A stretch of 64,000 nt of DNA from Akkermansiaceae bacterium (GCA_903888515.1 CAISTY010000271.1:1906-65905); one strand, 5' to 3'. Shown: positions 1,292 through 31,047, counted from the first letter of the stretch. Numbers and translations are program-made. The notes: generated by a model from the letters alone, not told the origin.

Positions 1292-3055
1292 ATGAAAACG
1301 ACTACACACACGCCGCTGGTGCTGCTGCTGTTGGTGGGCACCGGGATTGCCGGATCGTATGATTTCTTCGACCTCTCCCGGTATCCGGAGGGTGGCAAAC
1401 TCAAGGAGGGGGTCGAACTCTACAAGGTGCGGGAGCCGGGTGGCGCGCCGCAGGAATACGCCCGCCGCGTGGTGCGGTGGTGGCCGCGCAAGGGCGTGGA
1501 TGTCGTTGACGTCAAGGACGGCATGATCGAGCGCGAGTGGACTTTGGCGGCGGACATGCTGGATGCCGTGAACTCCCCGGATCCGAAGTTCGAGTGGCAG
1601 ACCTTCGAGCACGACAAGCTCGACATGCCGCTCGATGTCGGAGAAAACTATATTCGCCAGATCCAGGGATATCTGATTCCGCCCAAAGACGATGACTATA
1701 CTTTCAAGATAGCCGCCGACAACATGGGGATCTTCTTTCTCAGCACCGACGAGTCCCCCCTGAATATCAAGCCGGCCTGTTACTCGTATCTCTACACCCA
1801 TCGCAACAATTTTGACCGCTTTCCGGGGCAGATCTCGAAACCGATTCCGCTCAAGAAGGGCCACAAGTATTACTATGAGCTTCTCCACAAAGAGGACAAC
1901 GCCGTGGACAATGCCATGGTGGTGTGGGAGACGCCGACGATGGAGCAGGAGGTGATCGGCGCTGCGGCCCTCATGACGCTGGACGGCAAGCCCGGCAAAG
2001 TGATAGAGAAGCGGGCTTCCCTGGATTCAGGATTGCTAGGCGCCACGGGGATTCGCGCCCGCGACCAGGTCCGTCGCTTCAAGGCGCATCTCATCGGCTT
2101 TGACGGCATCGGCAATGACCTCGGCGATCCAGGCAAGGAAGCGGAACTCCGCGAACCGGGTGTCATCCTGCGCCTGTCCGACGGTCGCCGCCAGACCTTC
2201 GCGGGTGGCAGTTTCTGTCGCGAAGACCGGGAATACATCTATCGGCTCTACCAGCAGGAAATGGCGCGGATCAAGGGCACGCTCGACAAGACCGTCTATA
2301 CCATCAAGGGCGTCAAAGGCAGTGTCCCCGTCGACACGCCCGCCGGGCAGCCCGGATCATGGCTCAAACACTCCGAGCACCTGGTCATTCCTTCGGGCAG
2401 CCAGGGCAATTCGGAATGGATCAATGTGGAGGATCCTGCGGCCGGCGAGCGCTATCGCGCGCTGATCTTCAGCAGTTACGAGAACATGTATGCCTTCTAT
2501 GAATACGGCGGGCATCTGATGCCTTACTGGGATCGCAAAGAGAAGCTCAAGTACTCAGGGATAGTCGGCGGCACGATTGTGAATGGCTACGAGGTTACGA
2601 AAGGCGGTGCCGGCGGCGGCTACGGCGCCCAGGGGCTGGCACCGGGGATCATGCCCGGCGGCGGGTTTGCCCACGAATACGGCCACGGCTTTACGATCCA
2701 GTGGAACGGGCAGTTCAGCGGCGAGACGATTTGCCAGCACATGATGTGCTTGATGCAGGGCGGGCGCGCCACCGGCTTTAGCAACTCCATCTTGCGCCCA
2801 TGGCGTAACAACCTGCATGGCTCCTACGACACCACGCTGTTCTTCAGCGCGCTGGGCTACGCCCAAAGAGCCACCGGCGGCGCGATGCTGCGCGACAACC
2901 TGGACGAAGTCGCTAAGATGGAGGATGCCTATGCGCCGGAAAACTGGAAGACCCGCATCGACCAGTGGGACTGGCGCACGCAGTGGGAAGTTGACGGCAC
3001 GATCAAAGATTTGCCCCTGACGCAGAAGTGGCTGCGCCGCGTCCGCGGCGAGTAG
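1292..3055 (+). CDS. Secreted HEXXH metallopeptidase-like protein, cassette copy P1 (588 aa; central ~1,000 aa missing relative to P3)
   Basis: RBS GAAAGGA before ATG 1292; signal peptide; PA14-like segment (GYLIPPKDDDYTFKIAAD); HEYGH at 2672-2686; same C-terminal YAPENWKTRIDQWDW motif as P3. Confidence 0.75.
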   Translation: MKTTTHTPLVLLLLVGTGIAGSYDFFDLSRYPEGGKLKEGVELYKVREPGGAPQEYARRVVRWWPRKGVDVVDVKDGMIEREWTLAADMLDAVNSPDPKFEWQTFEHDKLDMPLDVGENYIRQIQGYLIPPKDDDYTFKIAADNMGIFFLSTDESPLNIKPACYSYLYTHRNNFDRFPGQISKPIPLKKGHKYYYELLHKEDNAVDNAMVVWETPTMEQEVIGAAALMTLDGKPGKVIEKRASLDSGLLGATGIRARDQVRRFKAHLIGFDGIGNDLGDPGKEAELREPGVILRLSDGRRQTFAGGSFCREDREYIYRLYQQEMARIKGTLDKTVYTIKGVKGSVPVDTPAGQPGSWLKHSEHLVIPSGSQGNSEWINVEDPAAGERYRALIFSSYENMYAFYEYGGHLMPYWDRKEKLKYSGIVGGTIVNGYEVTKGGAGGGYGAQGLAPGIMPGGGFAHEYGHGFTIQWNGQFSGETICQHMMCLMQGGRATGFSNSILRPWRNNLHGSYDTTLFFSALGYAQRATGGAMLRDNLDEVAKMEDAYAPENWKTRIDQWDWRTQWEVDGTIKDLPLTQKWLRRVRGE

Positions 3056-3069
3056 GCAGGCCGGGGAGA

Positions 3070-3160
3070 TTGTCAGTTATCAGTTATTAGTTATCAGTTA
3101 TTAGTTATCAGTTATCAGTTATCAGTTGTCAGTTATCAGTTACCAGTTATCAGTTATAAG
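3070..3160. repeat. Tandem heptamer array, 13 units of TTATCAG consensus
   Basis: Directly visible; variants TTGTCAG, TTATTAG, TTACCAG, TTATAAG; lies between P1 and F1. Confidence 0.95.
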
Positions 3161-3180
3161 AAAAAGACAGGAACAATCAT

Positions 3181-4143
3181 ATGAAGACACACACGACCAG
3201 GTTCGCGACACTCACGTTTTTGATGGTGACCGCCGCCGCATTTGCGGCGGACGACGAGGCCGCGATGAAGAAGTTCACGGCACCGGACTGGACGGTGCCC
3301 GGCGTGGGGATGGAGATGAAGCTGATTCCCGCGGGGACCTTCACCATGGGCAGCCCGCAGGACGAGATCTGCCGCCGCGACGATGAGGTCCAGCACGAGG
3401 TCACGATTTCAAAGCCGTTCTACATGGCCGCCTTCGAGTGCCGTCAGCGCGAGTTCTACAAGCTGATGATGCCCAAGGACTATGACTACGAACTCTGGAC
3501 CTGCTTCCGCGGGCCGCTGCACGACGGCGCGGCCTATACCTACCGCTTTCCGTCGGTGAAGTCCGGTGCGCCGAACCCCGTCGGCTGGACCTATCCGATG
3601 GATACGCTGAGTTGGGAGCGGGCCGTGGAGTTCTGCGCGAAGCTGACCGCAGTTGAGAAGCAGGCCGGGCGACTGCCCGAGGGTTATGTCTATCGTCTGC
3701 CGACCGAGGCGGAGTGGGAGTATGCCTGCCGCGCCGGCACCAAGGGGCCATACAGTTTTGATGAAGACTATAGCAAGAGTGCGGTGATGCAGAAATACAC
3801 CTATTTCGGCGATGGCGGTTACTACACTTTCGGGGTGGGTGATACGGTGAGCAAACGCAAGCCCAATGCCTGGGGACTGCACGACATGTACGGCAACGTC
3901 TGGGAGTGGTGCTTGGATTGGCATGGTCCTTATGAGGCAGGGAAGCAGACGGACCCAAAGGGTACGCCGGAGGGCAAGGAAAAGATCGTGCGCGGCGGCA
4001 GTTGCGCGCCGTGGCCCCTCGTTGATGAGGCTCATCCGTATCTGCGTTGCGCCGCCCGCTACAGTTTCAGGCCCGGCACCGACTACCTGATTGTGCTGGG
4101 TTTCCGCGCGGTCCTCGCGCCGGAGGTGCAGGTGGGAAAGTGA
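3181..4143 (+). CDS. Secreted FGE-sulfatase/SUMF1-fold protein, copy F1
   Basis: Signal peptide; IPAGTFTMGS, YRLPTEAEWEYACRAG, PNAWGLHDMYGNVWEW, RGGS and GFR motifs. Confidence 0.9.
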   Translation: MKTHTTRFATLTFLMVTAAAFAADDEAAMKKFTAPDWTVPGVGMEMKLIPAGTFTMGSPQDEICRRDDEVQHEVTISKPFYMAAFECRQREFYKLMMPKDYDYELWTCFRGPLHDGAAYTYRFPSVKSGAPNPVGWTYPMDTLSWERAVEFCAKLTAVEKQAGRLPEGYVYRLPTEAEWEYACRAGTKGPYSFDEDYSKSAVMQKYTYFGDGGYYTFGVGDTVSKRKPNAWGLHDMYGNVWEWCLDWHGPYEAGKQTDPKGTPEGKEKIVRGGSCAPWPLVDEAHPYLRCAARYSFRPGTDYLIVLGFRAVLAPEVQVGK

Positions 4144-4184
4144 TCGGTAATCAGTGAAATGTTAACAATCAAAGGAGAACAAAC

Positions 4185-5096
4185 ATGAGAAGATTAGTTG
4201 CGGTGATGTTGGTGATGGTGGTCTATGACGAGAAGGAGGGAAAGAATGCGGCCTTCTATACCTCGACCAACCTGAAGGACTGGACCGAGCAGAGCCATCT
4301 GCCGGGGTATTTCGAATGCACCGATCTTATCAAGCTCCCGGTGGATGGCGACGCGAACAACCCGCGCTGGGTCGTTTACGCGGCCGATGCCCGGTATGCG
4401 GTGGGCCAATTCGACGGAACAAAGTTCACTCCCGAGCACGAGAGCAAGTACCAGGTCCATTTCGGGGCCTACTATGCGGCGCAGACTTTCGACAACTCGT
4501 CCGACGGCCGCAGGATCCAGATCGGCTGGGTCCAAGTTAGGGCGCCGGGGCCGTACAACCAGCACTTCAGCTTCCCGCATTGCCTGACGCTGCACAAGAC
4601 CGGGGACGGTATCCGCATGTTTGCCGCGCCCATCAAAGAGATTGAAACACTGCGCTCCAAGACCAACAAGGCGGAGCCACAGAAGCTGGTCGCGGGCAAG
4701 CCGGTTGATCTGCCGGTCGGCAGCGATCTGCTCGACATCCGCCTTACGGTGGAGGTGGGAAACGCCGGCAACATCGAGCTGAACATTCCGGGCGAAACCA
4801 TCAAGTACGATGTGCAAGGCCGGATGCTTGATGTCCCCATGCAGATGAGCGAGGTCGGCAGAAGGGTCAAGGGGTATCAAGGCGCGCCGCTAACGCCCGT
4901 CGACGGCATAATCAAGCTTCAGGTTCTGGTCGACCGGTCACTGGTGGAGGTCGCCGGCAACGACGGACGCGTCTACATCACCAGCACCGGACCCGGCAGG
5001 AAAATGGATGTTGCTAAGATCTCGGTAACGGCGACCGGCGGTGACGCGAAGCTCGTCGAGTTCGAAGCCCACGAGCTGAATTCGATCTGGAAGTAG
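4185..5096 (+). pseudogene. GH32 (levanase/fructosidase-like) with N-terminal catalytic half deleted
   Basis: Signal-like MRRLVAVML joined to VMVVYDE; has the FEC motif, YAAQTF and the C-terminal LVDRSLVEV sandwich, but no WMNDPNG or RDP motif. Confidence 0.75.
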
Positions 5097-5184
5097 CGGC
5101 GATGCGCAGAAGAAAATGATCAGTCACGGCCCACGAAAACACGCTGGAACAATTTACTGATAACTAACATTAGAGGAACCTGAC

Positions 5185-6159
5185 ATGAAGACCTATGGAT
5201 TGACGTTGATGGCAGCAATGCTGGCGGCGGCGACGACGACCGCAATTGCCGCGGACGACGCGGCAGCGATGAAGAAGCTCAAGGCCAAAGACTGGACGGT
5301 GCCCAGCGTGGGGATGGAGATGAAGCTCATTCCTGCGGGGGCCTTCACCATGGGCAGCCCGAAGGACGAGATCTGCCGGCGGGACGACGAGGTCCAGCAC
5401 ACGGTCACGATTTCCAAGCCGTTTTACATGGCCGCCTTCGAGTGCCGTCAGCGCGAGTTCTACAAGCTGATGATGCCCAAGGACTATGACTATGAGAAAT
5501 GGACCTCGTTTCGCGGCCCTATCCACGAAGGCACGGCTTACACCTACCGCTTCCCCTTGGTGAAAGGCGCGGGTTCCAGTCCGGTCGGATTCACCTATCC
5601 GATGGATATGCTCAACTGGAACCAGGCCGTGGAGTTCTGCGGGAAGCTCACGGGTGAGGAGAAGAAGGCCGGCCGCCTGCCGGACGGCTATGTTTACCGT
5701 CTGCCGACCGAAGCGGAGTGGGAGTACGCCTGCCGCGCGGGTACCAAGGGCCCCTACAGTTTTGATGACTATAACAATCCTGCGGTCGTGATGAGGCACA
5801 TGTATGCCGGAACCGGCGGCGACTATACCTTTGGCGTGCGGGATACCGTGAGCAAACGCAAGCCCAATGCCTGGGGACTTTACGACATGTATGGCAATGT
5901 CTGGGAATGGTGCCTGGACTGGTATGGTCCTTATGAAAACAGAGATCAGTCTGAGCCGGCCGGTCCGGCGGCGGGGGAAAAGAAGGTTGTGCGCGGAGGA
6001 TCATGCATGCCCTGGTTCAGCGATACCGAAAAATTCCTCAACGAGTCAGTGCATCCCTTCTGCCGCTCCGCCGCCCGTTACAGCTTCAAGCCGACGATAA
6101 ACTGCCTTATCACCACCGGGTTCCGCGTCGTCCTCGCGCCGGAGATGGGGGGGAAGTAA
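5185..6159 (+). CDS. Secreted FGE/SUMF1-fold protein, copy F2
   Basis: Same motifs as F1; 68 nt identical to F1 (3421-3488 vs 5425-5492). Confidence 0.9.
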   Translation: MKTYGLTLMAAMLAAATTTAIAADDAAAMKKLKAKDWTVPSVGMEMKLIPAGAFTMGSPKDEICRRDDEVQHTVTISKPFYMAAFECRQREFYKLMMPKDYDYEKWTSFRGPIHEGTAYTYRFPLVKGAGSSPVGFTYPMDMLNWNQAVEFCGKLTGEEKKAGRLPDGYVYRLPTEAEWEYACRAGTKGPYSFDDYNNPAVVMRHMYAGTGGDYTFGVRDTVSKRKPNAWGLYDMYGNVWEWCLDWYGPYENRDQSEPAGPAAGEKKVVRGGSCMPWFSDTEKFLNESVHPFCRSAARYSFKPTINCLITTGFRVVLAPEMGGK

Positions 6160-6200
6160 TCAGCGACCGTTAATCAGTTACCAGCAAGGAGAGCAAAATC

Positions 6201-9200
6201 ATGAACGAGAAAACCACATGGCGAGTGGCGGCAGTGATGGGCCTGATGTTAGGGGCGGCCCTTGCCGAACCTTACGATTTCTACGACTTGTCCCGCTATC
6301 CGGAGGGCGGCAAACTCAAACCGGAGGTGGAGCTCTATCAAGTGAAGGAGCCGGGCGGCGCGCCACAGGAATACCAGCGGCGCGAGGTGCGGTGGTGGCC
6401 GCGCAAGGGCGTGGACATCATCGAGGTCGCGGAGGGCATGCCGTTGCGCACCTGGACCTGGCGCGCCGGCCTCATGGATCCCGCGCTTGCCAAGGAGCTT
6501 GCCAAGCCGGTCATCGAGAGCTGGAAATCTTTTGCCAGTCCCCGCAACAATGTTGCCGACGGGTTTGTCCGCAACATTTATGGATGAAGCCGTGCAAACC
6601 GATCTGAAGGGCGACGACCACCTCGAAGTTGGCTGGCAAGGGCCGGGCGTGACCTTCGGTGTTATTGACGGTGAATATCTATCGGATCAGGAGGGCAAGC
6701 GTGGCGGCGTCACACAGATGTTCACGCTGTCGCCGTCAGGCTTCGGGCGGCAGCAGCCGTTTGACGCTCCGAAGCAGTTTCAGGCGCATCTGGTGGGCTT
6801 CCGCGGCATCGGCAATACCATGAGCAGCAAGTATCAGGGACGCGACGGCGGACCCATAGAACCGGCCGTGGTGCTGCGCCTGGCCGACGGCCGCAAGCGG
6901 CTGTTCGCGCGTGACAGCTTCGCGGCCGCAGACAAAGCCTATATCATGGATATATATGTCAAGGAAATGGCGCGAATCATGGCCGGTCTTGACAAGACTC
7001 CCTATCAGTCTGGCGGCGACGGCCATTTTCCTAACAACGCCAAGCCCGGCGAGCCCGGCACCATGCGGGTCGAGAGCGATCACTTCGTCTTCGTTTCCGG
7101 CAGCCAGGGCAACGGTAAATGGATCAATGAAGCCGAACCCGAGAATGCGCAGTGGTATCGTGAAGGATCCCTCAGGTGCGCCGAGTATTTCCGGGCGATG
7201 GAGGAATATGCGGGGTTATGCATGCCCACTTGGGAAAGCCCTGCCCCCGTCAAGTATGCTGTTACCGTGGCCGGGACGGTGCGTGACGGCCATGAACTGA
7301 TCCCCGGATATGCCGGCGGGGGAAGAAACCAGTGCATCCTCAAGGACGCCGGCGGCGGGCCGTGGAGCGAGGGGCTGTTTCACGAATGGGGGCATGGCGC
7401 GCCGGGACCGGGCGGCGGCATGGGCGGTGGTGAAGCTGCGGCGGATACGCACGGTTCCATCGCCGATCCCGCGATGCTCAAGGGTAACCACCATATCACC
7501 CGCCCCTGGCGCAACCTGTGGAATGGTATCAATGGCTATGGTTTCACGGACTTCTACTTGCTGGTGGGTGACGACCCTAACTGGGGCTACGCCTGGTCAG
7601 TCTGTCTGCCCGGGGCCGAATCCGAGTTCAGCATGCTGCATACCCTCGCGCGCACGGGCCAGCAGCGCGGCATATACCCACAGGGCGTCCGGGGCGTGGG
7701 CGATCTGGTGGGCGACTACGGTGCCCGCCTGACCACGTTTGACTGTGAGATGGAAGATCTGTTCCGCAGGGAGCGGTTTGCGCCGGCACGCAACTGGCTG
7801 GAGCCGGTTGATCGCGCCGGGCGGATTTATCGCATCCCCTATGAGGAGGCGGCCGAGCCATTCGGCATCAACATGTGTCGGCTGGTCGCTGATCCGGGAG
7901 CCGACCGTGTAGTGGTCGATTTTCTGGGGCGGCACGATCCGGAAAGCTATAGTGACTGGCGTGCCTGCATCATCGCCGTGGCTGCGGACGGCACGCGGCG
8001 CTATTCCCCACTTTGGAACAAAGGCGAGATGACCCTCAAGATCGAACCGGGTGATCGTTGTCACTGGTTGAGCGTGGCCGCGACGCCGACCGCCTTGTTT
8101 ACATCCGGAAAGTGGACGCCAGCGCAGTTGAGTGGGAAGCAAGGGCAATTATACAGCGGCCGCCATGCCTTCCGCTATCCCTGGCAGGTGCGGCTGCAGG
8201 GCGCGCAACCCGGCACCCCCAGGAATCGGCGGGCGGATCTTGATGATGCGGATGGCATCTATACGATGAGCGACGGCGTGCCCGCGCCGCATGATACACC
8301 CGCAGGCAAGCGTTTCCTGACGCGGCTCAAATCCTTTGAACAAAACCTGACGACTATCGCGGCCAATGCCGGTGACACCAAACTGATTCTGGATTCCGTC
8401 TCCTATGCCAAGGCCAGGCTGAACGCCGAACTGGCCCGCATGACGGACGGCGCGCGGCACCCCAACGGCGGCGGCTGGGTGCAGTCCACGGCCCATGTCG
8501 CGCCCACCGCCTGGGTGGGGCCGGATGCCATGGTGCTGGACCAGGCGCAGGTGCTTGATCATGCCATTATCGAGGATTATGCGATCGTGGCCGACCGCGC
8601 GGTGGTGGCTGACCACGCCCGCGTCAGCGGTCAGGGCATTGTCAAGAAGCAGGCGGAAGTGCGCGGTTATGCACGCACCTGGACGGTTGCGGAGAAGACC
8701 GGCGAGGCCCCGGTGGTTCCCGTGCGGCCGGGCGCGACGAAGTTGCACAAGTTCGGCCTGTGGGCCAATTATGCCATGGACCGCGCGGACCACACCACGC
8801 TGGAAGACTGGTATCGCTACACGTTTGACGCGGACAAATCCTACGGCATGAATCTCGTGCCGGTCCTCAACGGTTATCTGCACGGCGGTCCCGCCTTCGT
8901 GGTCGATGGCGACCGCCGCGGTTTCAGCTTTGACGGCAAGACCCAGTGGGCCGAACTCTGCCCCCGCGTGGCGGACCTCGGCGAGATGACGATAGATTTG
9001 GCGCTGAAGTGCGCGAGCAACGACGGGCAGGTGATCTTCGACCTTGGCAGCTCCGCGGAGAACTGTCTGGTGCTCAAGACCGATGCCAGCGGAACCCCGC
9101 AGCTCATCGCGACCGTTGCCGGCAAGCGTGTCGTCGAGTTGGCCGGCAAGAAAGCTCTAACCACCAACCAGTGGGCCCGCCTGCGGGTTGAAAGCGATGG

Positions 9201-10596
9201 CCGGCGGACGTCGCTGTGGCTGGATGGGGAGATGGTGGCGGAGACCGCCAGCGACTTCCGTCCGTGCCAGGTCTTCCCGGCCGGGTTGGTCAAACGCAAT
9301 TTCCTGGGCGTGTCGCGGGCCATGACCGCGCACTTCAAGGGCGTCATCGACGATCTGGTGGTCTATCACGCCGTGCATGGTGATTTCAGCAAGTTGCCGC
9401 CCCCGGTGCGCGACTGTTCCGTGCGACCGACCGACGAGTTCGTTGCGGCGGTGAAGAAGCAACAGGGCTCGGTCAAGGCCGTCGAGAAAGAGATCGCGGT
9501 CAAATTAGCCGAGCAAATCAAGCCCTACAACGCGCTGGAGACGCAGTGGAATGCGCGACGAGATGAACTGTTCAAGCGCGACGCGGGGTATGAGAAGGCG
9601 AACGCCGCTCTCGCCGCCGCAGAGATGGCGTCCAAAACCCGCGAGCAGGAGCTGGTTAAACAGTTCGATCAAAACCCGGACGTGGTCGCGAAAAAGGCCG
9701 GGATCGCTCGCCTGCGGCGGGTCGCAAACGACCTGAAGGACAAGGTGAAGGCGTTGGAGAACGCGGCCTTCGCCGCAGACAGCGTGCTCGCCGGGTTGGA
9801 GGTCCGGCGCAAGGAATTTCAGGAGAAAGTTCGGATCATCGCGAAGGAGTTGGCGGCGGCATTCGAACAGCAGCCCGAGGTGGTTCTGCGGCGGACAGAG
9901 ATTTCCGAGTGGCGCAAGCAAGCGGACAAGCTCCAGGCCGAGGCCGGCAAAACACCGGAAACAAAGCGCCGCCACGACGAGTTGATGGCCCGCATCCGCG
10001 ATGCGGACGAGGCGTTGCGCGTGCAGTTTGATGATCTGTGCGATAAGAACCGTGAAAACACCGCCGCAATCAGGAGCATGAACGAGACCGCCGCCGCCAT
10101 CCTCCCCCGCCAGCAGGTGGTGCGCCGCCGCCTCAGCAGGGAGTCGCCTGTGGTGCGCGAGGCCGAAAAGGCCGAGCAGGACTGCCGCCCGCTGGAAGAG
10201 GCCATGGAAGCCGATAAACAGCGCTTCATGACGGCGCAAATGGCGGATTCGAAAAAGCGGATCAATGATGCCAAAGGGGAGTTCAAACAGGCAACCGCCA
10301 AGGCCGAGCGGACCTACCTCATGGAGATGGAGTGGGGTCGGCACTTCCATGAATTGGGGTTTCACGGATACTACAACACCCATTACGAGGCATATCTCAT
10401 GCAGTATGTGAAAGATCGCATGGGTGGGGGCGAGATGCGCGAGGATGTGGCCTTCCTCGACAGCCTGCTCAAGGATCTAACCAGGGAAGATGCCTGGCGC
10501 ACCAGCGTTGACTGGGTCAAGCCGGGTGACGCGGAAGATCCCGACGAGCCGCCGCTGATTCGCAAGTGGAAGACAAGAATGGGAATCAAACAATGA
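6201..10596 (+). pseudogene. HEXXH metallopeptidase-like copy P2, split by a frameshifting deletion in PA14 (6201-6587 and ~6580-10596)
   Basis: First ORF carries the signal peptide and YDLSRYPEGG...RWWPRKG. The second frame has HEWGH (7381-7395), the HPNGGGWV beta-helix, LamG and coiled coil. About 70 codons present in P1/P3 are missing at ~6583. Confidence 0.75.
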
Positions 10597-11588
10597 GCAC
10601 ACGCATGAAAACACCAACCACCACGCTCACCACCTTCGTCCTGCTGGCGGCCTGCACCGCCGCCTCGGCAGCCGATGACGTCGCCGCAATGAAACAGTTC
10701 AAAGCCGCAGCCTGGTCCGTGGTGGGCATCGAACTGGAGCTGAAACGCATCCCGGCCGGAACCTTCACCATGGGCAGCCCCAAGGACGAGATCGCCCGGC
10801 GCGAGGACGAAGTCCAGCACGAGGTCGCCATTTCCAGACCGTTCTATATGGGTGCCTGCGAGGTCACCCAGCGCCAGTTCTACAAGCTGATGATGCCGGA
10901 TTACGATTTTGACGCATGGACATACAAGCGCGGGCCCGTCGCGGATGGTGCCGCCTTCTGTTTCCGTTATCCGACCGAGAGCGGGCTGATCTTCGGTGAA
11001 TCCTCCACGGGCGGGCCGCAAACCGATCTCAACCCCATGGAGTGCGTCACCTGGCAGCGCACACAGGCGTTCTGCGCGAAACTAACCGATATCGAGAAGC
11101 AGGCGGGACGCCTGCCCGACGGCTATGTCTATCGTCTGCCCACCGAAGCCGAATGGGAGTATGCCTGCCGCGCCGGAACAAAAGGTCCCTACAACGTGGA
11201 CGGCGACGCCACGCGCATGGTGGGCATCCGCAAGTTCGCCTGGGTGGCCGGTGCCGGCTCATCGTTTGGCACGCGCAAGGTGGGGGACAACCGGCAGCCC
11301 AATGCCTGGGGTCTCTATGACATGCACGGCAATATCGCGGAGTGGTGCCTCGATTGGTATGCGCCGTATGCCGAGGGAAAACAGACCGATCCGGCCGGAC
11401 CTGCGGAAGGCGCGGAGAAGGTCATTCGCGGCGGCAGCTTCAGCCCCGGGAGCAGCGACAAGGAGATGGATAAAGTGCATCCCTTCCTGCGCTCGGCAAG
11501 CCGCTACAGCGTGCCGCCGGACCTCGCGTATCTGGCGATCGCGGGCTTCCGCGTGGTCCTCGCACCGGAGGTGAAGGCCGGCAAGTAA
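10593..11588 (+). CDS. Secreted FGE/SUMF1-fold protein, copy F3
   Basis: ATGA overlap with the P2 stop; FGE-fold motifs as in F1. Confidence 0.9.
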   Translation: MSTRMKTPTTTLTTFVLLAACTAASAADDVAAMKQFKAAAWSVVGIELELKRIPAGTFTMGSPKDEIARREDEVQHEVAISRPFYMGACEVTQRQFYKLMMPDYDFDAWTYKRGPVADGAAFCFRYPTESGLIFGESSTGGPQTDLNPMECVTWQRTQAFCAKLTDIEKQAGRLPDGYVYRLPTEAEWEYACRAGTKGPYNVDGDATRMVGIRKFAWVAGAGSSFGTRKVGDNRQPNAWGLYDMHGNIAEWCLDWYAPYAEGKQTDPAGPAEGAEKVIRGGSFSPGSSDKEMDKVHPFLRSASRYSVPPDLAYLAIAGFRVVLAPEVKAGK

Positions 11589-11603
11589 GAAGTTGACAGT
11601 TAT

Positions 11604-13574: not shown

Positions 13575-13583
13575 GGTGTGTTG

Positions 13584-13640
13584 ACCTGGAATCCGCAGTT
13601 GAGAAAAGGATGTAGAGGAGCAAGCGGGTCAAGTGACGGC
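13584..13640. repeat. 57-bp dispersed intergenic repeat, copy A
   Basis: Matches 18177-18233 with 3 mismatches. Confidence 0.85.
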
Positions 13641-13655
13641 CTTGTGCTGCGAGCG

Positions 13656-14189
13656 TTACTTGCCCGCGGGCGGCGCGATTGCCTGAACGTGGCTCCATGT
13701 TTGTTCTCCCACCTGCACGCCGGTCACCAAGTGGGTCGGCCAGCCCGTGCCCTTGCGCCCGGCATTGGCGTTGAACAACTCCGGCCGCTCCCGCCGGTTG
13801 ACTATCGTCTGGGTGCCGTCGGTCCACTGGATCGTGTGCGTGTAGGCTGCGACCGGGTCGTTTTTCTCCCATTTGATTCCGTCCTTGGAAACCAGGTGCG
13901 CGCCGAAGCGCGAGTGGCCGGTCAAGGTGCCGTTGCAGTCCTCGGCTATCAGGTGGTAGAGCCCGTCGCGAAATGCCAGATCGGGATCTTCCAGTTGGGC
14001 ATCAGGGCAGATATTGCGGGCAATCAAGCGGTATGATCCGTTCCAGGCATTGGCTTCGGCAATGTCTATGCGCAAGCCGCGGATACGCAACGCCAGCAGG
14101 ATCCGCCCGTCCTCATGCACATACGGCGCGGGATTGTTACAGTCTTCCCCAATGGGCAGGCATTCATCTACTGTCCACAACACTGTCAT
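13656..14189 (-). pseudogene. C-terminal fragment of a five-bladed beta-propeller glycosidase (GH43-like)
   Basis: NNPAP, LEDP, SKDGIKW and RRERP...PTHL motifs; no signal peptide or N-terminal blades. Confidence 0.6.
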
Positions 14190-14294
14190 CTGTCATGGCC
14201 TCTGGACCATTCGCGCCGCTGCCTGATCCGCGCCCCGGCGGCAAGCGGCGCCGGACCGTGGCTGGCTCACACTTGATGCCGCGCGGGGCCGGGC

Positions 14295-14369
14295 CTATTG
14301 GTTCTCCAACTTGAGCATGGCCGTGGCGAAACGTTTGCCGAGCGCCACCATGCCGGCGGTATCGTATGA
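14295..14369 (-). pseudogene. C-terminal stub resembling a sialate O-acetylesterase/CE6-type esterase
   Basis: Reads YDTAGMVALGKRFATAMLKLENQ*, with no start codon context; near-identical tail at 43210-43245. Confidence 0.45.
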
Positions 14370-14665: not shown

Positions 14666-14667
14666 GG

Positions 14668-18060: not shown

Positions 18061-18176
18061 TGTAATCCATCCATATCGTTCTCTTGCTCACGAATCTTAC
18101 ATTTCTTATCATCACCCGGTTGTATTTTCTCCCCCAGCCAAACCGTCGAGCGACTGGCTTGCCGGGATCCTTGTCA

Positions 18177-18233
18177 ACCTGGAATCCGCAGTTGAGAAGA
18201 GGATGCAGAGGAGCAAGCGGGTCAAGAGACGGC
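18177..18233. repeat. 57-bp dispersed intergenic repeat, copy B
   Basis: Matches 13584-13640; its CCGCAGTTGA has an inverted partner TCAACTGCGG near 18297-18306. Confidence 0.85.
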
Positions 18234-18380
18234 TGACATGGCGGGGTGAGTGGAGTCGAACAGGGGCCACGGCGGGGCTTTTCCCCATGGTTGGATTCAA
18301 CTGCGGCGCAGTTCGGGCCAACCAATCAAGAAGCCTCTGGCCGCCACCCATAACTGTGGATTATGGGATTATATCATAAC

Positions 18381-19805: not shown

Positions 19806-19871
19806 GATTACCGATTACCGTCCTTTGCTGGTATTCTTTCACGGCGCGGGTGCATCATTCTTTGGTTGCAA

Positions 19872-23090: not shown

Positions 23091-23154
23091 GTAATCTCCT
23101 TTCATTAAAATGGCGGGTCTGGTCGACATGTCGATAGGTTGCTTATGGATTTGC

Positions 23155-24489: not shown

Positions 24490-24533
24490 GGTCTTAATGT
24501 CTTTCGTTACTCCTCGGGTAGCCCCACCATCGG

Positions 24534-24939
24534 ATGACCCTTGGATTCAGAGTGGATTTTCATTTCATGAGGGCAAGCGAAAAACAACTTGTTGAGGCCA
24601 TCCTCGCCACTTGGATCTTCGAGCAGGATCCATCGCAAATCGAGCGACTCGCCACAGACGGCAAAGTCCTGCGCGGCACCGGACGCACCGATGGCAAACC
24701 GCTCGCCTCGCTCTCGCTGGTCACCCACCAACTGCGCACCACCCTGCGTTCGGTGCGAATCGCGGAAAAAAGCAACGAAATCCCCCCCCCCGCCATCAGA
24801 CTGCTTCTGACAGGCATGGGCCTGCAAGGCTGCACCGTCACTGCCGACGCCATGCACTGCCAGCAGGAAACCGCCCGCTTTATCACCCGGATCCAGTGCG
24901 GAACATCCGCTCGCGCCTCTTTCAGATAAAATGGCTCTG
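24534..24939 (+). mobile_element. ISAs1-family transposase remnant
   Basis: TDGKVLRG, EKSNEIP and VTADAMHCQ motifs; ORF truncated at both ends. Confidence 0.8.
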
Positions 24940-25206
24940 AATATATCGCAATTCCTTCAAGATCCTTCTTGCAAGGGGGGGGGAAACCTGTACCTCGGAC
25001 TTGTCACCATCCCGCTATGACCGCCGTTGGCACACCATTGAAGCCCAAATCCCTGCCTTCGACCTGACGTCCGGGGGGGGCGTTTCTGCCCCTCCTTTCC
25101 CCGCAATCCATTTTCTCCCGCTCTCCGACCCGCACTTTAGCCCCTCATGCGCACCCACCGTGATAAACAATTTCCTAGCAATAAGATGATACGAAAGGAA
25201 TGTGCC

Positions 25207-28200
25207 ATGAAGAGAGTCCTGACCGCAATCACATTACCGGTAGTTCTAGCAGGAGCAGCGCATGCCGGCGATCTTTACAGGGATGGCAAAATCGACTACT
25301 TCGGCCTCGCCCGCTACCCGGAGGGGGGGGAACTTGTCGACGGGGTCGAGCTGTACCAAGTGAGTGAAAGCGGGGGGGCGGCTGACAAATATGGCCGCCG
25401 CGTGGTGCGTTGGTGGCCGCGCAAGGGTGTGGACTTCATCGAGATCAAGGACGGGATGCTCCCGCCGCGCGAGTGGACATTCAAGGCCGATCCACTGGAC
25501 GAGGGCGCGGGCGGGCTCAAAGGGGAGCCTACGATTGTCGAACACGAGAAACTGATCCTCGACCAGAGCCCGAATAACTGGTTCCAGCGCCGCTTCCGGG
25601 GCTATCTGCATCCGCCCGCCGACGGCGACTACGTTTTCAAGATCAGCGCCGACACCATGGGCTTTTTCTACGTGAGCACGGACGATAAACCGGAGAACAA
25701 GAAGCTGGTCTGCCGTCTGACGAAAGCCTCCAAGAGCCTGCAGTGGGACCTGTGTCCGGAACAGAAATCCGGGTCGATTCCGCTCAAGAAAGGCCGGAAG
25801 TACTACTACGAAGTCATCCATAGCGAGACGGACAGGAAGGACCACATTGCGGCGGCCTGGCAGAGCGACGCGATGGAAGAGGCGCTGCTCGGCGGCCCCT
25901 GCGTCTCAACCCTCAAGGGCGAGCCCGGCAAGGTCATCGAGGAGAGGTGGGGTACCCCGCCGGGCACCGGCGTCCGCGCGCACGATCTGCCGCGCAGCTT
26001 CAAGGCGCAACTGCTCGGTTTCGACGGCATCGGCAACCGCTATGGCGATCCCTTCCAGGACGGCGAGGATTTCGTGGAGCCGACAACGATCCTGCGCATG
26101 CCCGACGGCACCATGCGCAGCTTCGAGGACGGAACCTTCTGCCAGACGGACCGCGAGTTCATCCTCAAGGAGTACCTCGAGGCGATGGAACGGGTCAAGG
26201 CCGGCCTGGACAAGACCGTTTGCAAGGTGCAACCGGGAACCATACGGGGGTACCCCAATAACGCAGAGGTTGGCGAGCCGGGGACCATGCGGGTCGAGAC
26301 CGAGCATTTCGTGGTCCCCTCGGGCTCGCAGGGCAAAAGCGCCTGGGTGAACACGGACGACCCCGAAAAATCGGCCCGCTTCCGCCAGTGCGCGACGAAC
26401 ATGCTCGAGGACTTTCACGCCTATCTGGAATACGGCGGACACCTGATGCCCTACTGGGACCGCAAGGAGCAGTACAAGTTCGAGGTGCATGTCGGGGGGA
26501 CCATCGCCGACGGGTTCCGCAGTGTTGGTGGAGGCGGCATGGGCGGCTACGGCGGGGCGGGGGTGGCCCTCAGCTCCAGGCCGGGTGGCTTCTCCCATGA
26601 ATACGCCCACGGCTTCTCGATCCAGTGGAAAGCGCACAGCGGCGAGATCCTGCCCACCGCAAACAACGTGATCTGCGGCGGCGATGCGGGCCTGTGCGAG
26701 ATGAACGTCGAGCGGCCCTTCCGAAACCCCATTCACGGCACCTACGTGACGGTCCTCTTCTACCGCATGGTCGGCTTCGATCCCAACTGGGGCATGTGTG
26801 CGCCGCTGGCCCTGCCCAAGTCGGTGGCCGAGTCCAGTTTCTTCCAGACCCTGGCCCGGGTCGGCCAGCAGCGGGGGTTGTTCAAGGACGGCATGTGCGG
26901 CGTGGGCGACATGGTGGGCGACTACGGTGCGCGACAAGCGGAATTTGACACGCAGAACCAGGAGGCGTTGCGCCAGCAATGGTTCGCGGTGGCACGCAAT
27001 TATCTCGAGCCGGTGGACAAGGAGCAAGGGATCTACCGGATTCCCTGGGACGAGGCCCCCGAACCGTTCGGCGTCAATATCGTCCGGCTGGTGCCCGACA
27101 AGGGCGCCAGCGTCATCGACGTCGACTTCCAGGGCTATCACGATCCGGCCGTCTACAGCGACTGGCGCGCCTGCATCGTGGCAGTGGATAAAGACGGCCG
27201 GGCGCGATACAGCGACTTGTGGAACAAGGACGGGATGCACATGGAGCGCCGGGACGGGGACCAGCGCTACTGGCTGACGGTCGCGGCGACGCCCCGGGCG
27301 CAACTGGGGAGTCTCTATCAGGGCCATTTCGCGGCCCGCTACCCGTGGCAGGTCACGCTGCGCGGCGCGACGCCGGGTGCGCCGCAACGCACCCGGGCCG
27401 ACCTGAACGACGTGTATGGCGTGTACGGCCACGGCGACAGGATGAAGGGCGGGGCGATTCTGCCCGTCGCCCCGAATACGGAGGCGGACAAACGATTTGT
27501 CGTGGAGGCCCGCACGGTTGGGGCCGAAATGCGCAAGCGCGTGGACAACAGGGCGGCCGGCGAGCTGGAAAAGGTCTTCGCGCACTGGGTGCTCGACAAT
27601 CTGGAGGAGGCGCTGGGCTCTGCGGAGGGAGCACCGCACCCGAACGGAGGCGGCTGGGTGGCCGCGACGGCTCAGGTCGCGCCCACGGCCTACATCGGTC
27701 CGCACGCCGCCGTTCTGGAACGGGCCAAGGTGCTTGACCAGGCCGTTGTCGAGGATGGCGCGGTGATCCGAGACAGTGCCATCATTTCCGATCACGCCCG
27801 AGTGAGCGGCCAGGCGGTCATCGGAGACGGCGCCCGCCTCGACGGGCACAAGCGCGCCTGGTTCCCGCTGGGCCTGGCCGCCGATGAGGAGCCCCCCGAA
27901 CTGACGACACGCCTGAATGAGGACCTCGACGAGTACGGGCTGTGGGCCAATTACGCCATGGACCAGGCCGAAGCCATGGTGCTGGAGGATTGGTACCGCG
28001 GCACCGACAGCGACCGCGAGTTTTTCTGCAGCGTGCTCAACGGCTACCTATACGGCAAACCCGCGTTCGTGGTGGACGGCGAGCACCGCGGCTTTGCCTT
28101 CGACGGCAAGGCGCAGTATGCGGAGTTGAATCGCCGCATTGCCGACCTGGCGGAGATCACTGTGGACATGACCGTCAAACGGCTGGGCGATGGCGGTCAG

Positions 28201-30045
28201 ACGTTGCTGGATTTCGGCTCGAACATGGACAACCGGTTCACCCTCGCCAGCGGCGGCAAGGATGGCACGCTCGCATTCACGGCCGTGGTGGACGGCAAGA
28301 CCGTCGCTTCGCTGTCATCCCCGCAACCGCTCCCCCGCGAGCGCTGGACCCGCGTGCGTCTCGAACTCGACGGCGACAAGGCGGCGCTCTGGATGGACGA
28401 CGCGAAGGTCGCCGAGACCGCCGCCGCCTTCCGGCCGTGTCAGGTCTTCAAGCCCGGACTTGCCCAGCGCAACTTCATTGCAACCGCGCGGGATCTCAGC
28501 GCCGGGTTCAAGGGAGTCTTCGACGACGTCGTGGTCTATCACCGGGTGCACGGCAACGCCTTCGCCAAACTGCCCCGCCCCGTCATCAGCCCCCCCCGCC
28601 GGCCTGCGGCGGGCTTCGCCGCGCGGGTGCGCCGGACCATGGACGTGAGTGCCTACGAGCAGCAGGACCGCGCCGGTAAGCTCAGCGGCCCGATGATGGA
28701 GGCCATCGGCGGAAAAGGGTCGCGGGCCGCGATGAGACTCTACCAACTGCAACACCGCTCGCAGGAATGGCCGGCGGCGGTGGCGCGGGCCGCGGAGATC
28801 GACAAGTTGAAAGCGGAATATACGCAACGCTTCCAAAAGGAGTCCGGCGAGTGCAAGGAAGCCCGGGAATTGGCCGCGCAGATTGCGGAGATCGACAAGA
28901 AGCTCGCATTGCAGCAGAAAAAACTCCCGGAGTCCGGGAAGAAAAAAAGCGCAAAGACAGCGTCCGCGCCGAGTGCCCCGCCATCTGCGGAAATCGTCGA
29001 GCTCGACAAGCGGAGCACGCAACTCAAAGCGAAGATTGCCGAGGTGGAAAAACGGATCAAACAGGCCGAGGGGGAGGCCAAGGCGGAAGTGGCGGCCATG
29101 CCCGAAAGCAAGGCCGAGCAGGCCGAGATCGCCCGGCTCAAGGAGCAGATTGCACCGCTCAAAGCGCCGGCCGACGCCGTGCTCGAGAAAGCCCTGAAAG
29201 ATGACGGACAGCAGGCAATGGCGGAGGCGGCCACGAAAGAGGCGCAGAAATACACGACCGGCTACTGGCGCGCGGTGTCCTCCGTGAACGGGGCGCTGGG
29301 CGGTTGGTGGGGCCAACACGTCAAGGCCATCAAGGAGCGGCTCAAAACGCAGGACGAAACCTATGGGAAATGGGCCGCCCTGACCCAAAAGCTGGGCGAG
29401 ACCGAGGCCCGCCGCCGCTATCGTGACGAGACGTTTCTCATGCAGCATGCCGGCCGCGCCGACCTGCTGGACGGGGCCGACGTCTTGCGTCAGGAGTTGG
29501 CCGACGTGGCGGAGCAACGCAAGGCGGCCGAGCCGCCGAAAGCCGAGCCGCCACCGGTGTCCAAGGAGGATGCGGCCCTGCAGAGCGAGTTGTCGGCGTT
29601 GCAGCAGGAAAAGGACAGGCTGCGCACGCGGCTGCGCGAGATCACCGGCCGCTACGTCGAGGAGAAAATGCGCGAGGTTGGCGCGTTGGACATGGACAAG
29701 GAGCGCAAGTCGGTCCTGGCCGAAGGCCGCAGAAAGGCCATGCTCCGGTACTATCAGGAGGATGTTGCCGCCTGGAGCACCCTCCGCTCGGCGTTTCATG
29801 GCTGGTTCAACGGACCCTATGCTCCGTACGTCAACCGTTACTGCGCGAAACTCGTGGGCACGCCGCGGATTCGCGGCGAACTCGCCATGGCGGAAAAAAT
29901 CGCGGCAAGCTACGCGCCCGAAAATTGGAAAACCCGCGTCGACCAGTGGGACTGGCGCACGGCCTGGGAGAAGAACGACAACGACAGCCTCAAGGAGTTG
30001 CCTTTGACGCGGAAGTGGCTGGAGAGGGTGAAAACTGACAACTGA
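25207..30045 (+). CDS. Large secreted HEXXH metallopeptidase-like protein, intact cassette copy P3 (1,612 aa)
   Basis: Signal peptide; split SHD1-like domain with a PA14 insert; HEYAH at 26596-26610; HPNGGGWV hexapeptide beta-helix; LamG-like domain (FAFDGKAQY...FDDVVVY); long coiled coil; W-rich tail. Confidence 0.8.
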   Translation: MKRVLTAITLPVVLAGAAHAGDLYRDGKIDYFGLARYPEGGELVDGVELYQVSESGGAADKYGRRVVRWWPRKGVDFIEIKDGMLPPREWTFKADPLDEGAGGLKGEPTIVEHEKLILDQSPNNWFQRRFRGYLHPPADGDYVFKISADTMGFFYVSTDDKPENKKLVCRLTKASKSLQWDLCPEQKSGSIPLKKGRKYYYEVIHSETDRKDHIAAAWQSDAMEEALLGGPCVSTLKGEPGKVIEERWGTPPGTGVRAHDLPRSFKAQLLGFDGIGNRYGDPFQDGEDFVEPTTILRMPDGTMRSFEDGTFCQTDREFILKEYLEAMERVKAGLDKTVCKVQPGTIRGYPNNAEVGEPGTMRVETEHFVVPSGSQGKSAWVNTDDPEKSARFRQCATNMLEDFHAYLEYGGHLMPYWDRKEQYKFEVHVGGTIADGFRSVGGGGMGGYGGAGVALSSRPGGFSHEYAHGFSIQWKAHSGEILPTANNVICGGDAGLCEMNVERPFRNPIHGTYVTVLFYRMVGFDPNWGMCAPLALPKSVAESSFFQTLARVGQQRGLFKDGMCGVGDMVGDYGARQAEFDTQNQEALRQQWFAVARNYLEPVDKEQGIYRIPWDEAPEPFGVNIVRLVPDKGASVIDVDFQGYHDPAVYSDWRACIVAVDKDGRARYSDLWNKDGMHMERRDGDQRYWLTVAATPRAQLGSLYQGHFAARYPWQVTLRGATPGAPQRTRADLNDVYGVYGHGDRMKGGAILPVAPNTEADKRFVVEARTVGAEMRKRVDNRAAGELEKVFAHWVLDNLEEALGSAEGAPHPNGGGWVAATAQVAPTAYIGPHAAVLERAKVLDQAVVEDGAVIRDSAIISDHARVSGQAVIGDGARLDGHKRAWFPLGLAADEEPPELTTRLNEDLDEYGLWANYAMDQAEAMVLEDWYRGTDSDREFFCSVLNGYLYGKPAFVVDGEHRGFAFDGKAQYAELNRRIADLAEITVDMTVKRLGDGGQTLLDFGSNMDNRFTLASGGKDGTLAFTAVVDGKTVASLSSPQPLPRERWTRVRLELDGDKAALWMDDAKVAETAAAFRPCQVFKPGLAQRNFIATARDLSAGFKGVFDDVVVYHRVHGNAFAKLPRPVISPPRRPAAGFAARVRRTMDVSAYEQQDRAGKLSGPMMEAIGGKGSRAAMRLYQLQHRSQEWPAAVARAAEIDKLKAEYTQRFQKESGECKEARELAAQIAEIDKKLALQQKKLPESGKKKSAKTASAPSAPPSAEIVELDKRSTQLKAKIAEVEKRIKQAEGEAKAEVAAMPESKAEQAEIARLKEQIAPLKAPADAVLEKALKDDGQQAMAEAATKEAQKYTTGYWRAVSSVNGALGGWWGQHVKAIKERLKTQDETYGKWAALTQKLGETEARRRYRDETFLMQHAGRADLLDGADVLRQELADVAEQRKAAEPPKAEPPPVSKEDAALQSELSALQQEKDRLRTRLREITGRYVEEKMREVGALDMDKERKSVLAEGRRKAMLRYYQEDVAAWSTLRSAFHGWFNGPYAPYVNRYCAKLVGTPRIRGELAMAEKIAASYAPENWKTRVDQWDWRTAWEKNDNDSLKELPLTRKWLERVKTDN

Positions 30046-30069
30046 TTGCTAACAGCAGAGGGGACCAAT

Positions 30070-31047
30070 ATGAAGAGACCAGGAATGACGATAGGGGTGG
30101 TGGCGGTGTTCCTGGCGAGCGCCGCCGCATTTGCCGCCGACGATGCCGCGACGCTCAAGCAACTCACGGCCAAGGAGTGGACCGTGCCGGACGTCGGCAT
30201 CCAGATGATGCGGATCCCGGCAGGGACCTTCACCATGGGCAGTCCCGAAAGCGAGACGGCCCGCTGGGAGGAGGAGACGCAGCACAAGGTGACCCTCACC
30301 AAGCCGTTCTACATGGCCGCTTACGAGTGCCGCCAGCGCGAGTACTACAAGCTGATGCTGCCGGCGGACTACGACTACGACGCCTGGCAATACCAGCGGG
30401 GGCCGCTGCACGACGGCGCGGCCTGGCGGCACAAGTGGCACCGCGGCAAGTTTGGCGCCCACACCCTCGAAGACTACACCTATCCGATGGAATGCGTCAG
30501 TTGGCACAACGCCATGGAATTCTGCAAGAAGCTCACGCAGCGGGAGAAAGCTGCCGGGCGCTTGCCCGAGGGGTATGTGTACCGCCTGCCGACGGAAGCC
30601 GAATGGGAATATGCCTGCCGGGCCGGGTCCCAGGGTCCCTTCAATTTTGTCGGGGACTATTCCAAGTGCTACGAGTTGCAGCGGCACATGTATCTTGGCG
30701 GCGGCGGCTGGGTCAAGTTTGGCGTTGGCGACACTGAAAGTGAGCGCAAACCCAATGCCTGGGGCCTGCGCGACATGCACGGCAACGTCTATGAGTGGTG
30801 CCTGGACTGGTATGCCCCCTACGAAAAGGGCCCTCAGACCGATCCGACGGGGCCGCAAAAGGGCACGGAGAAAGTCGCGCGTGGCGGCGGAGCCGTGCCC
30901 TGGGTTTCCGACGGCATGCTGGCCTGGGGCGTGCACCCCTTTGTCCGTTCCGCCAGCCGCTACGGCTTCGAGCCCGAGACTGACCATTCGGTCATCCTCG
31001 GCTTCCGCGTCGTGCTGGCACCGCAGGTGGCGGGCGGGGGAAGGTGA
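30070..31047 (+). CDS. Secreted FGE/SUMF1-fold protein, copy F4
   Basis: Starts 24 nt after the P3 stop with RBS AGAGGGG; FGE-fold motifs. Confidence 0.9.
   Translation: MKRPGMTIGVVAVFLASAAAFAADDAATLKQLTAKEWTVPDVGIQMMRIPAGTFTMGSPESETARWEEETQHKVTLTKPFYMAAYECRQREYYKLMLPADYDYDAWQYQRGPLHDGAAWRHKWHRGKFGAHTLEDYTYPMECVSWHNAMEFCKKLTQREKAAGRLPEGYVYRLPTEAEWEYACRAGSQGPFNFVGDYSKCYELQRHMYLGGGGWVKFGVGDTESERKPNAWGLRDMHGNVYEWCLDWYAPYEKGPQTDPTGPQKGTEKVARGGGAVPWVSDGMLAWGVHPFVRSASRYGFEPETDHSVILGFRVVLAPQVAGGGR

Follow-up and report, generated by a model that had tools for sequence, protein, structure and literature searches.

A conserved gene cassette pairing a giant, predicted Svx-like peptidase with a secreted FGE-fold protein in an uncultured lake bacterium

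Svx of Pectobacterium is a secreted gluzincin in which an HEXXHX(22)E zinc motif is followed by an 'acyltransferase-like' left-handed beta-helix, a domain that the enzyme needs in order to recognise the arabinan side chains of extensins, and its authors placed its fold closest to that of the M60 O-glycopeptidase ZmpB (PMC9266454, PMC10815107, PMC13164431); that Svx cleaves extensins has been established experimentally (PMC9266454, PMC13164431). DUF6055, the family of which Svx is the only characterised member, has been linked in the literature to the poorly described MEROPS family M106. Proteases joined to a domain of the formylglycine-generating enzyme (FGE) fold are known as well, in the form of bacterial metacaspase-FGE-sulfatase fusions whose FGE-fold domain is presumed to be a binding or sensing module (PMC3501461). 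Here we consider a stretch of 64,000 nucleotides from an uncultured lake bacterium of the Planctomycetes-Verrucomicrobia-Chlamydiae (PVC) group (Akkermansiaceae bacterium, GCA_903888515.1, CAISTY010000271.1:1906-65905; this whole stretch is called the window below). Between its positions 1292 and 31047 a gene for a giant peptidase-like protein (P) occurs three times, each time followed at once by a gene for a secreted FGE-fold protein (F), and a fourth F gene precedes the second P gene.

Unlike the P/F arrangement, the metacaspase-FGE combinations are built on a C14 cysteine peptidase, are fused, are often associated with conflict systems or diversity-generating retroelements (DGRs), and do not serve extracellular glycan foraging. 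The components of the P/F cassette are of known kinds, and no description of their pairing was found in the literature searched, in which 'DUF6055' led only to unrelated work and the Svx paper (PMC9266454) makes no mention of formylglycine. A preliminary description of the window, made from its sequence alone, had spoken of an undescribed system. As far as the pairing is concerned, this holds for the literature searched, but the phrase was too strong for the whole, since the Svx family has been characterised and metacaspase-FGE combinations are on record. The reading that we prefer, to which we assign a probability of roughly 0.5, is that P and F are the two subunits of a Sec-exported glycoprotein peptidase, with F as its non-catalytic, lectin-like binding subunit.

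Pairing of P and F in the window and across genomes

All P and F genes lie on the plus strand, where the preliminary description had placed them:

1292-3055, plus strand: P1, in-frame internal-deletion derivative of the peptidase gene, with HEYGH at 2672-2686
3181-4143, plus strand: F1, intact secreted FGE-fold gene (PF03781, E 3e-38; 59% identity to F4)
4185-5096, plus strand: truncated fragment of a glycoside hydrolase family 32 (GH32) gene, starting at profile position 146 of 307; outside the cassette
5185-6159, plus strand: F2, intact FGE-fold gene upstream of P2
6201-10596, plus strand: P2, disrupted peptidase gene, with HEWGH at 7381-7395
10593-11588, plus strand: F3, intact FGE-fold gene, joined to the end of P2 by a stop/start overlap, ATGA
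25207-30045, plus strand: P3, intact peptidase gene, 1612 aa
26596-26646, plus strand: predicted zinc site of P3, H464-E465-Y-A-H468 plus E480 (HExxH-x11-E)
30070-31047, plus strand: F4, intact gene of the FGE/PvdO fold that partners P3 and starts 24 nt after its end

Of the three copies of the conserved cassette in this region, P3-F4 is intact and the other two, P1-F1 and F2-P2-F3, are decaying; tblastn searches of the window with P3 and F4 returned no copies beyond P1-P3 and F1-F4. P3 is identical to a protein on another metagenome contig. The ATGA overlap of P2 with F3 and the 24-nt spacing of P3 and F4 had both been read correctly before; the latter gap is purine-rich and contains AGAGGGG, which resembles a ribosome-binding site. 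The signal peptides of P and F were judged by eye from an initial stretch rich in K/R, a hydrophobic core and an A-x-A site. Scanning 24.4-31.3 kb for promoters and terminators gave none above shuffled background, and the RNA runs of a related sample contain none of this sequence and are uninformative on co-transcription.

A scan of one genome per GTDB species yielded 396 stretches encoding P relatives, from which 74 loci (1.09 Mb) were fetched. All of these come from uncultured metagenome-assembled genomes (MAGs) assigned by label to Planctomycetota, Verrucomicrobiota, Kiritimatiellia, Phycisphaerae, Victivallales and a few other groups, often with several copies per genome. Members of the F subfamily were recognised with a hidden Markov model (HMM) built from the four F proteins of the window, on which they scored 215-568 versus 33-157 for other FGE-domain open reading frames (ORFs). 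The count from P was limited to the 53 P genes whose two flanks could each be followed for 1.3 kb or more. In 44 of these (83%) a same-strand F-subfamily gene lies no more than 1 kb away: 34 have it downstream, 9 have it upstream and 1 is flanked by F genes on both sides. Counted from F, 58 of the 63 F-subfamily genes in the fetched loci adjoin a P gene, and F homologs on long contigs, chosen irrespective of P, directly follow a DUF6055+LamG gene in six of six cases. No third conserved cassette gene emerged among the 74 loci.

The two genes also diverge together. Over 43 pairs, the distances among P proteins correlate with those among F proteins with r = 0.85 (Mantel, 0 of 2000), and the 33 comparisons between paralogous cassettes of one genome, for which species history is constant, give r = 0.83. 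The clades of P do not follow genome boundaries, and in one of them F is consistently upstream. The P-F pairing is beyond chance. The preliminary description had proposed an exported peptidase and partner diversified as paralogous pairs, and had named the neighbourhoods of P homologs and the congruence of P with F as the places to look; on both, the wider set of genomes agrees with it.

Predicted properties of the two proteins

P matches the Pfam families PA14, DUF6055, Hexapep (weakly) and Laminin_G_3. The parts of P3, by residue, are as follows:

1-22: signal peptide
about 25-105: N-terminal domain
about 110-250: PA14
about 255-600: catalytic subdomain
about 601-745: beta-sandwich
about 746-805: helical hairpin
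about 806-900: left-handed beta-helix, with HPNGGGW at 811
about 940-1125: LamG
about 1130-1520: coiled coil (~400 aa)
about 1521-1612: conserved C-terminal domain (~90 aa)

An AlphaFold2 model of residues 1-1160, built with 78 homologs (pLDDT 89.6, pTM 0.91), arranges an N-terminal beta domain, PA14, a mixed alpha/beta domain, a beta-sandwich (601-723 in the model), a helical hairpin, a beta-helix and a LamG jelly roll in this order. The HEYAH helix (460-471) lies within the mixed alpha/beta domain and the next helix starts at E480, while short strands recur about every 6 residues over 808-880, as is typical of a left-handed beta-helix. H464, E465, H468 and E480 are invariant in all 78 P homologs; across other genomes HExxH-x(8-19)-E is present in 67 of 67 peptidase domains, with a spacing of 10-13 in 62 of them. 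Within the fetched loci, local HMMs find the N-terminal and C-terminal domains in P genes only, and no candidate homologs came from a search with the 112-aa C-terminal domain. Few proteins have the P-type catalytic domain: 47 clusters match at E ≤ 1e-30 in a set of 1.84 billion representative proteins, and the weaker matches to the catalytic-domain query mostly cover the beta-sandwich half only.

Judged from its sequence features, P is a member of the DUF6055/Svx gluzincin family or superfamily with an expanded architecture and a divergent catalytic half. Against the gathering cut-off of 27 bits for DUF6055 (PF19527), P3 scores 75.2 and P2 58.6, over profile positions 252-415 of 417 only; P1 has lost the matching part, and all of 37 peptidase domains from other genomes match the family. 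A tblastn search of plasmids returned two shorter proteins of Svx architecture, from Clostridium felsineum (annotated DUF6055) and from Novosphingobium. The Novosphingobium protein, a peptidase with a beta-helix, aligns with P in the beta-sandwich (hhalign probability 99.1, E 5e-19) and again in the beta-helix, around a shared NGGGWV motif (BLASTP 3e-9). The preliminary description had drawn a link to Svx and DUF6055, and the Pfam score, hhalign, BLASTP and the zinc motif concur in it.

With the Svx/AvrXca-type peptidases of Pectobacterium, Dickeya and Xanthomonas, P shares a Sec signal peptide, the HExxH...E motif, the DUF6055-matching beta-sandwich half and a left-handed beta-helix starting at NGGGW, and some members of that type also carry accessory carbohydrate-binding domains. 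P is, however, two to three times larger than Svx, with an extra N-terminal domain, an optional PA14, LamG, the ~400-aa coiled coil and the C-terminal domain, and its third zinc ligand follows at a spacing of 8-19 (mostly 10-13) instead of 22. An FGE-fold partner gene likewise sets P apart from the three shorter DUF6055 genes examined (at loci L078, L079 and L080), which have no FGE neighbour. The M60-like/enhancin O-glycopeptidases (ZmpB, BT4244, IMPa; PF13402) resemble P in their extended HEXXHX(8,28)E motif and their carbohydrate-binding modules; PF13402 itself was not found in 37 P domains at E ≤ 1, and Peptidase_M66 gave a weak match (E 0.023) in 4 of the 37.

F1-F4 match FGE-sulfatase (PF03781) with E values of 1e-38 to 1e-41. 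By sequence and by predicted fold, the closest solved relatives of F are PvdO, TvpA, FGE, PorK and pFGE (1y4j), with Foldseek E values of 8e-18 for PvdO, 4e-17 for TvpA and ~1e-16 for human FGE, and PorK also among the matches. The protein is ~33 kDa in size and begins with a Sec-type signal peptide followed by a conserved helix. It contains many invariant charged and aromatic residues and a motif of its own, W-x-Y-x-RGP-x-x-DGAA.

The active-site cysteines of human FGE, C336 and C341, lie in the loop after the GGS motif. The cysteines conserved among 61 F-family sequences are structural (F4 positions 152, 183 and 244); a cysteine after RGGS is found in 41% of the 61 members, and the second conserved cysteine position is absent. 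F3 and F4 have no cysteine in the post-GGS loop, F1 and F2 have one after RGGS, and F2 has an additional one just before the conserved RSAxR motif. The loop that corresponds to the FGE active-site loop, F4 275-292, is the least conserved segment of F. Because the copper-binding cysteine pair is missing, F is judged not to be a formylglycine-generating enzyme, and on these sequence criteria we classify it as a non-catalytic, or at least non-FGE, protein of the FGE/PvdO fold, as the preliminary description had it. Neither has P a conserved C/S-x-P-x-R target motif: the one match that P3 contains, SPPRR at 1128, falls on a position at which A is the consensus of the family. With no cysteine pair in F and no CxPxR motif in P, the idea of F as an FGE acting on P was ruled out.

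The fold and the missing FGE cysteine pair are common to F and to the non-catalytic FGE-fold proteins PvdO, pFGE/SUMF2, PorK/GldK and TvpA. F differs from PvdO, PorK/GldK and TvpA in having no pyoverdine cluster around it, in being neither a lipoprotein nor a ring component, and in the absence of a reverse transcriptase or template repeat nearby; being secreted on its own and associated with a single peptidase family, it stands apart from the other non-catalytic members of the fold. Its most variable loop occupies the location of the FGE active site, which is presumably also the location of the variable region of TvpA. Diversification of F by a DGR was considered and rejected, given that no template repeat was found near the F genes, where the only direct repeats are those between F paralogs, and that no reverse transcriptase was found among the ORFs of 1-32 kb, the main ORFs there belonging to other families and no intergenic gap being sufficiently large.

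The two-subunit reading and its rivals

In three MAGs, P and F are one polypeptide. The ORF at L052:9554-15430, in an Akkermansiaceae MAG, encodes 1958 aa with Pfam matches to DUF6055, Laminin_G_3 and FGE-sulfatase; its signal peptide is followed by an intact HEWGH...E, LamG, the C-terminal domain, a linker without signal peptide and, last, the FGE domain. The same junction of C-terminal domain, linker and FGE domain recurs in L059 (Kiritimatiellae), which also keeps HEWGH...E, and in L053 (Verrucomicrobiales), both being cut off at the contig start. F-subfamily domains are joined to other enzymes as well: behind a SASA esterase (sialate-O-acetylesterase-like) plus GH2_N at L047:6412-9465, directly upstream of a P gene, and ahead of a C-terminal ADP-ribosylglycohydrolase domain in the F partner at L032:4074-6263, which adjoins a P gene. 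A further FGE domain, of the generic kind, forms part of an NPCBM+HZS_alpha fusion protein at L023. We take these fusions as an argument that F is an accessory module acting in cis with secreted hydrolases. Between the two roles that the preliminary description had left side by side, they favour a lectin-like subunit, and an inhibitor or immunity protein is less favoured.

Domain identities, motif conservation, loss of the cysteine pair, conservation of the cassette, co-divergence and natural fusions were computed here; the peptidase activity, the glycoprotein substrates, the physical contact of P with F and the binding role of F that enter the following scheme we infer. P would hold a zinc ion through HExxH and the glutamate 8-19 residues downstream, with catalysis predicted from this site, and the surrounding PA14, left-handed beta-helix and LamG modules would read glycans. 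This head would sit on the ~400-aa coiled coil as on a stalk ending in the conserved 90-aa C-terminal domain. By analogy with Svx, P might cleave proteins that bear dense glycosylation, for instance the hydroxyproline-rich or mucin-like glycoproteins of algal or plant walls, as part of a glycan-foraging repertoire. F would be made together with P through translational coupling and would dock on P, possibly at the LamG/C-terminal end. There is a weak hint of contact at this end, since the partial correlation is highest there (see below) and the fusions put F at the C-terminus. F would then add a ligand-binding surface whose variable loops differ among paralogous cassettes.

A broader idea, which we hold only tentatively and consider rather doubtful as a whole, is that PVC bacteria have recruited the FGE fold, without a DGR, to serve extracellular hydrolases as an exchangeable, non-catalytic subunit that confers specificity or acts as an adaptor. 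Its main client would be the stalk-mounted Svx-like glycoprotein peptidase, with sialate-esterase-like and ADP-ribosylglycohydrolase-like enzymes as others, and each paralogous P/F pair would address a different target glycoprotein.

In lakes, oceans and sediments, much of the breakdown of complex and often sulfated glycans is due to PVC bacteria, whose attack on the protein part of glycoproteins has barely been studied. The cassette ties Svx, a virulence factor of a plant pathogen, to a much larger environmental subfamily of DUF6055 and so offers a hypothesis for these giant proteins. It likewise suggests a role for one subfamily of the very numerous PVC genes annotated 'formylglycine-generating enzyme family'; these are routinely taken for sulfatase maturases, although the F subfamily is without the catalytic cysteines. 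Should F be a specificity subunit, selective glycoprotein cleavage would be a possible use of cognate P/F pairs, and if the FGE fold does act as an adaptor, the cassettes would represent an unrecognised two-component strategy of glycoprotein harvesting in aquatic carbon cycling.

Several observations weigh against the two-subunit reading. Nine of the 53 P genes have no F-subfamily neighbour. That F1-F4 are intact beside the broken P1 and P2 would also be expected if they coded for immunity proteins or inhibitors, or had a role of their own apart from P. The segment-wise relation of F distances to P, with partial r values of 0.51 for LamG and 0.42 for the C-terminal domain, is weak and comes from non-independent pairs. 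As to P being a peptidase, its catalytic half does not align to the first 250 positions of the DUF6055 profile, and the profile of the peptidase domain gave no meaningful match among PDB sequences, those of the solved M60 structures included. Finally, in Foldseek searches of PDB and BFVD with the 1160-aa P3 model, the best 50 matches listed in each are almost all to LamG, which crowded out a comparison of the peptidase fold, and no peptidase is among these 50.

F might instead be a cognate inhibitor, latency factor or immunity protein that blocks P in the periplasm or on the producer surface until its release; the 'orphan' F genes, intact next to broken P genes, would then be immunity genes that have been retained. 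We consider this unlikely. A peptidase gene followed at once by the gene of an exported partner is what the pairs AprA-AprI, PrtA-Inh and protealysin-emfourin have in common with P/F, where the F gene directly follows and codes for a signal peptide of its own; the damage to P1 and P2 next to intact F1-F4 and the co-divergence of P and F as cognate pairs would suit such a system too. The fold has non-catalytic binding members, with pFGE (1y4j) and PorK among the structural matches, and SUMF2, a non-catalytic FGE paralog, binds partners. A permanent fusion, however, fits an inhibitor poorly, because a processing step would be needed and there is no sign of one, and P and F are a single polypeptide with intact HExxH...E in L052 and L059 and share the same junction in L053. 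F-subfamily domains are, moreover, fused to unrelated hydrolases (the SASA esterase and the ADP-ribosylglycohydrolase), and F lies upstream of P in 9 of the 53. The known metallopeptidase inhibitors of such operons are small (~10-12 kDa) and of other folds, unlike the 33-kDa FGE-fold F with its natural fusions to P.

Somewhat less probable still, in our estimate, is that F is an enzyme or maturation factor, an oxidase-like protein of the FGE superfamily that modifies P, its substrate or its product. FGE matures sulfatases, PvdO and NirV are found beside partner enzymes, and PvdO, the closest solved relative of F, is required for an oxidation step; the strong FGE-sulfatase matches and the invariant charged and aromatic residues, including W-x-Y-x-RGP-x-x-DGAA, could be read in the same way. 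Against this stand the absent or unconserved catalytic cysteines of F, the lack of a conserved C/S-x-P-x-R in P and the poor conservation of just that loop which is equivalent to the FGE active site. Bacterial FGEs also act before export, whereas F is exported. Sulfatases are the commonest other neighbours (38 genes in 26 of the 74 loci), but they are very numerous in PVC genomes, so that their frequency within 10 kb is probably near background.

Least likely of all we hold the view that P and F do not interact and are merely co-regulated in glycan-utilisation loci, F being a free secreted lectin-like or sulfated-glycan-binding protein and adjacency a matter of operon inheritance: the heterogeneous glycan-degradation context without a third conserved partner and the commonness of FGE-domain genes, 11 more of which lie outside the F subfamily in the fetched loci, would agree with it, but adjacency is 83-92% in both directions over several phylum labels while all other neighbours vary, paralogs within one genome co-diverge, the P and F genes are translationally coupled, and the fusions have been kept in three MAGs.

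Decayed copies, neighbouring genes and repeats

In P1, a part corresponding to residues 27-524 of P3 (47% identity) passes in frame into one corresponding to residues ~1527-1609. The signal peptide, the N-terminal domain, PA14, the catalytic half with its HEYGH helix and the C-terminal domain are preserved, and the beta-sandwich, beta-helix, LamG and coiled coil are gone. In P2, ~70 aa are deleted inside PA14 and the frame changes at a TGA (6585-6587). Its first part, 6201-6587, comprises the signal peptide, the N-terminal domain and the start of PA14 and ends at this TGA, and the remainder lies in another frame, for which the sole possible restart is an ATG at 6580, without a signal peptide. 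Independent lake-metagenome assemblies cover both lesions, one with 0 differences (X1) and another with 43 single-nucleotide polymorphisms over 5.6 kb and 0 gaps (X3). Because these assemblies carry the lesions without gaps, the damage is real, and assembly error was ruled out as its cause by the identical structures in lake-water samples. F1-F4 all remain intact, and dN/dS between pairs of them is 0.23-0.32. The earlier remark on F genes surviving beside damaged P copies can now be given its particulars, a deletion in P1 and a deletion with a frameshift in P2.

The GH32 fragment at 4185-5096, to which the preliminary description made no reference, lacks a proper N-terminus. Since it is damaged along with P1 and P2, the stretch from 1.2 to 10.6 kb is a decaying one in which the F genes alone are intact. 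The first 300 nt compared between F1 and F2 (3225-3524 and 5229-5528) are 87% identical, the remainder 72-83%, and the two neighbouring copies may, from this pattern, have undergone partial gene conversion. In about 15 lake or freshwater metagenome runs from different studies, each run holds ~48-52% of the 31-mers sampled from window positions 6000-11600, and two runs hold 97-98%, which suggests a widespread related population sharing part of this segment.

F3 is followed by a GH97 gene and F4 by an AraC-type regulator. Ahead of P3 lies a minus-strand block coding for a HEAT-repeat protein, a GFO/IDH/MocA oxidoreductase exported by the twin-arginine (TAT) route, two sulfatases and a GH95-like protein. 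The neighbours of P/F elsewhere vary and are mostly glycan-active, among them sulfatases, GH78, GH2, BNR sialidase-like proteins, multi-LamG giants, SASA/GDSL esterases and one GH127; the window itself has, besides GH97, the GH95-like gene and the sulfatases, a sulfatase-BNR fusion. The last is a 915-aa ORF on the minus strand (43285-46032) that combines a sulfatase domain with a BNR_2 sialidase-like beta-propeller. An apparent cluster of GH78 neighbours proved to be a single-linkage mixture dominated by sulfatases and was dropped. GH127 includes beta-L-arabinofuranosidases acting on extensin glycans, and the single case found here would fit an extensin-like substrate.

On the contigs L075, L076, L077 and L081, which are from other metagenomes, P/F cassettes stand amid large HZS_alpha-domain proteins, and on these four and L083, likewise from another metagenome, amid PQQ_2 beta-propellers, with sometimes two or three P copies on these five contigs. 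In one lineage, HZS_alpha, PQQ_2, P and F may belong to a conserved neighbourhood of larger extent.

A direct repeat of 62 nt (92% identity) has intergenic copies at 13579-13640, after the GH97 stop, and at 18172-18233, in the gap between the oxidoreductase and a sulfatase gene, and a comparison with Rfam gave no match at gathering score. A 479-aa ORF at 33011-34450 on the plus strand has an N-terminal hydrophobic segment and no Pfam match, and several heptamer repeat arrays lie upstream of it. Such AT-rich tandem arrays of heptamers are intergenic and occupy 3073-3157, 32797-32822, 32912-32944, 32956-32989 and 49469-49529. The array between P1 and F1 consists of TCAGTTA x12, another one of GTCATTG x8.4, and single words resembling CAGTTA follow the stop codons of several cassette genes. 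Contig depth rises to 146-1107x over 2835-3201 from ~20x around it, and because of this jump we take the heptamer array to be common to many lake-metagenome contigs. The arrays resemble the heptamers of the short tandemly repeated repetitive (STRR) sequences of cyanobacteria.

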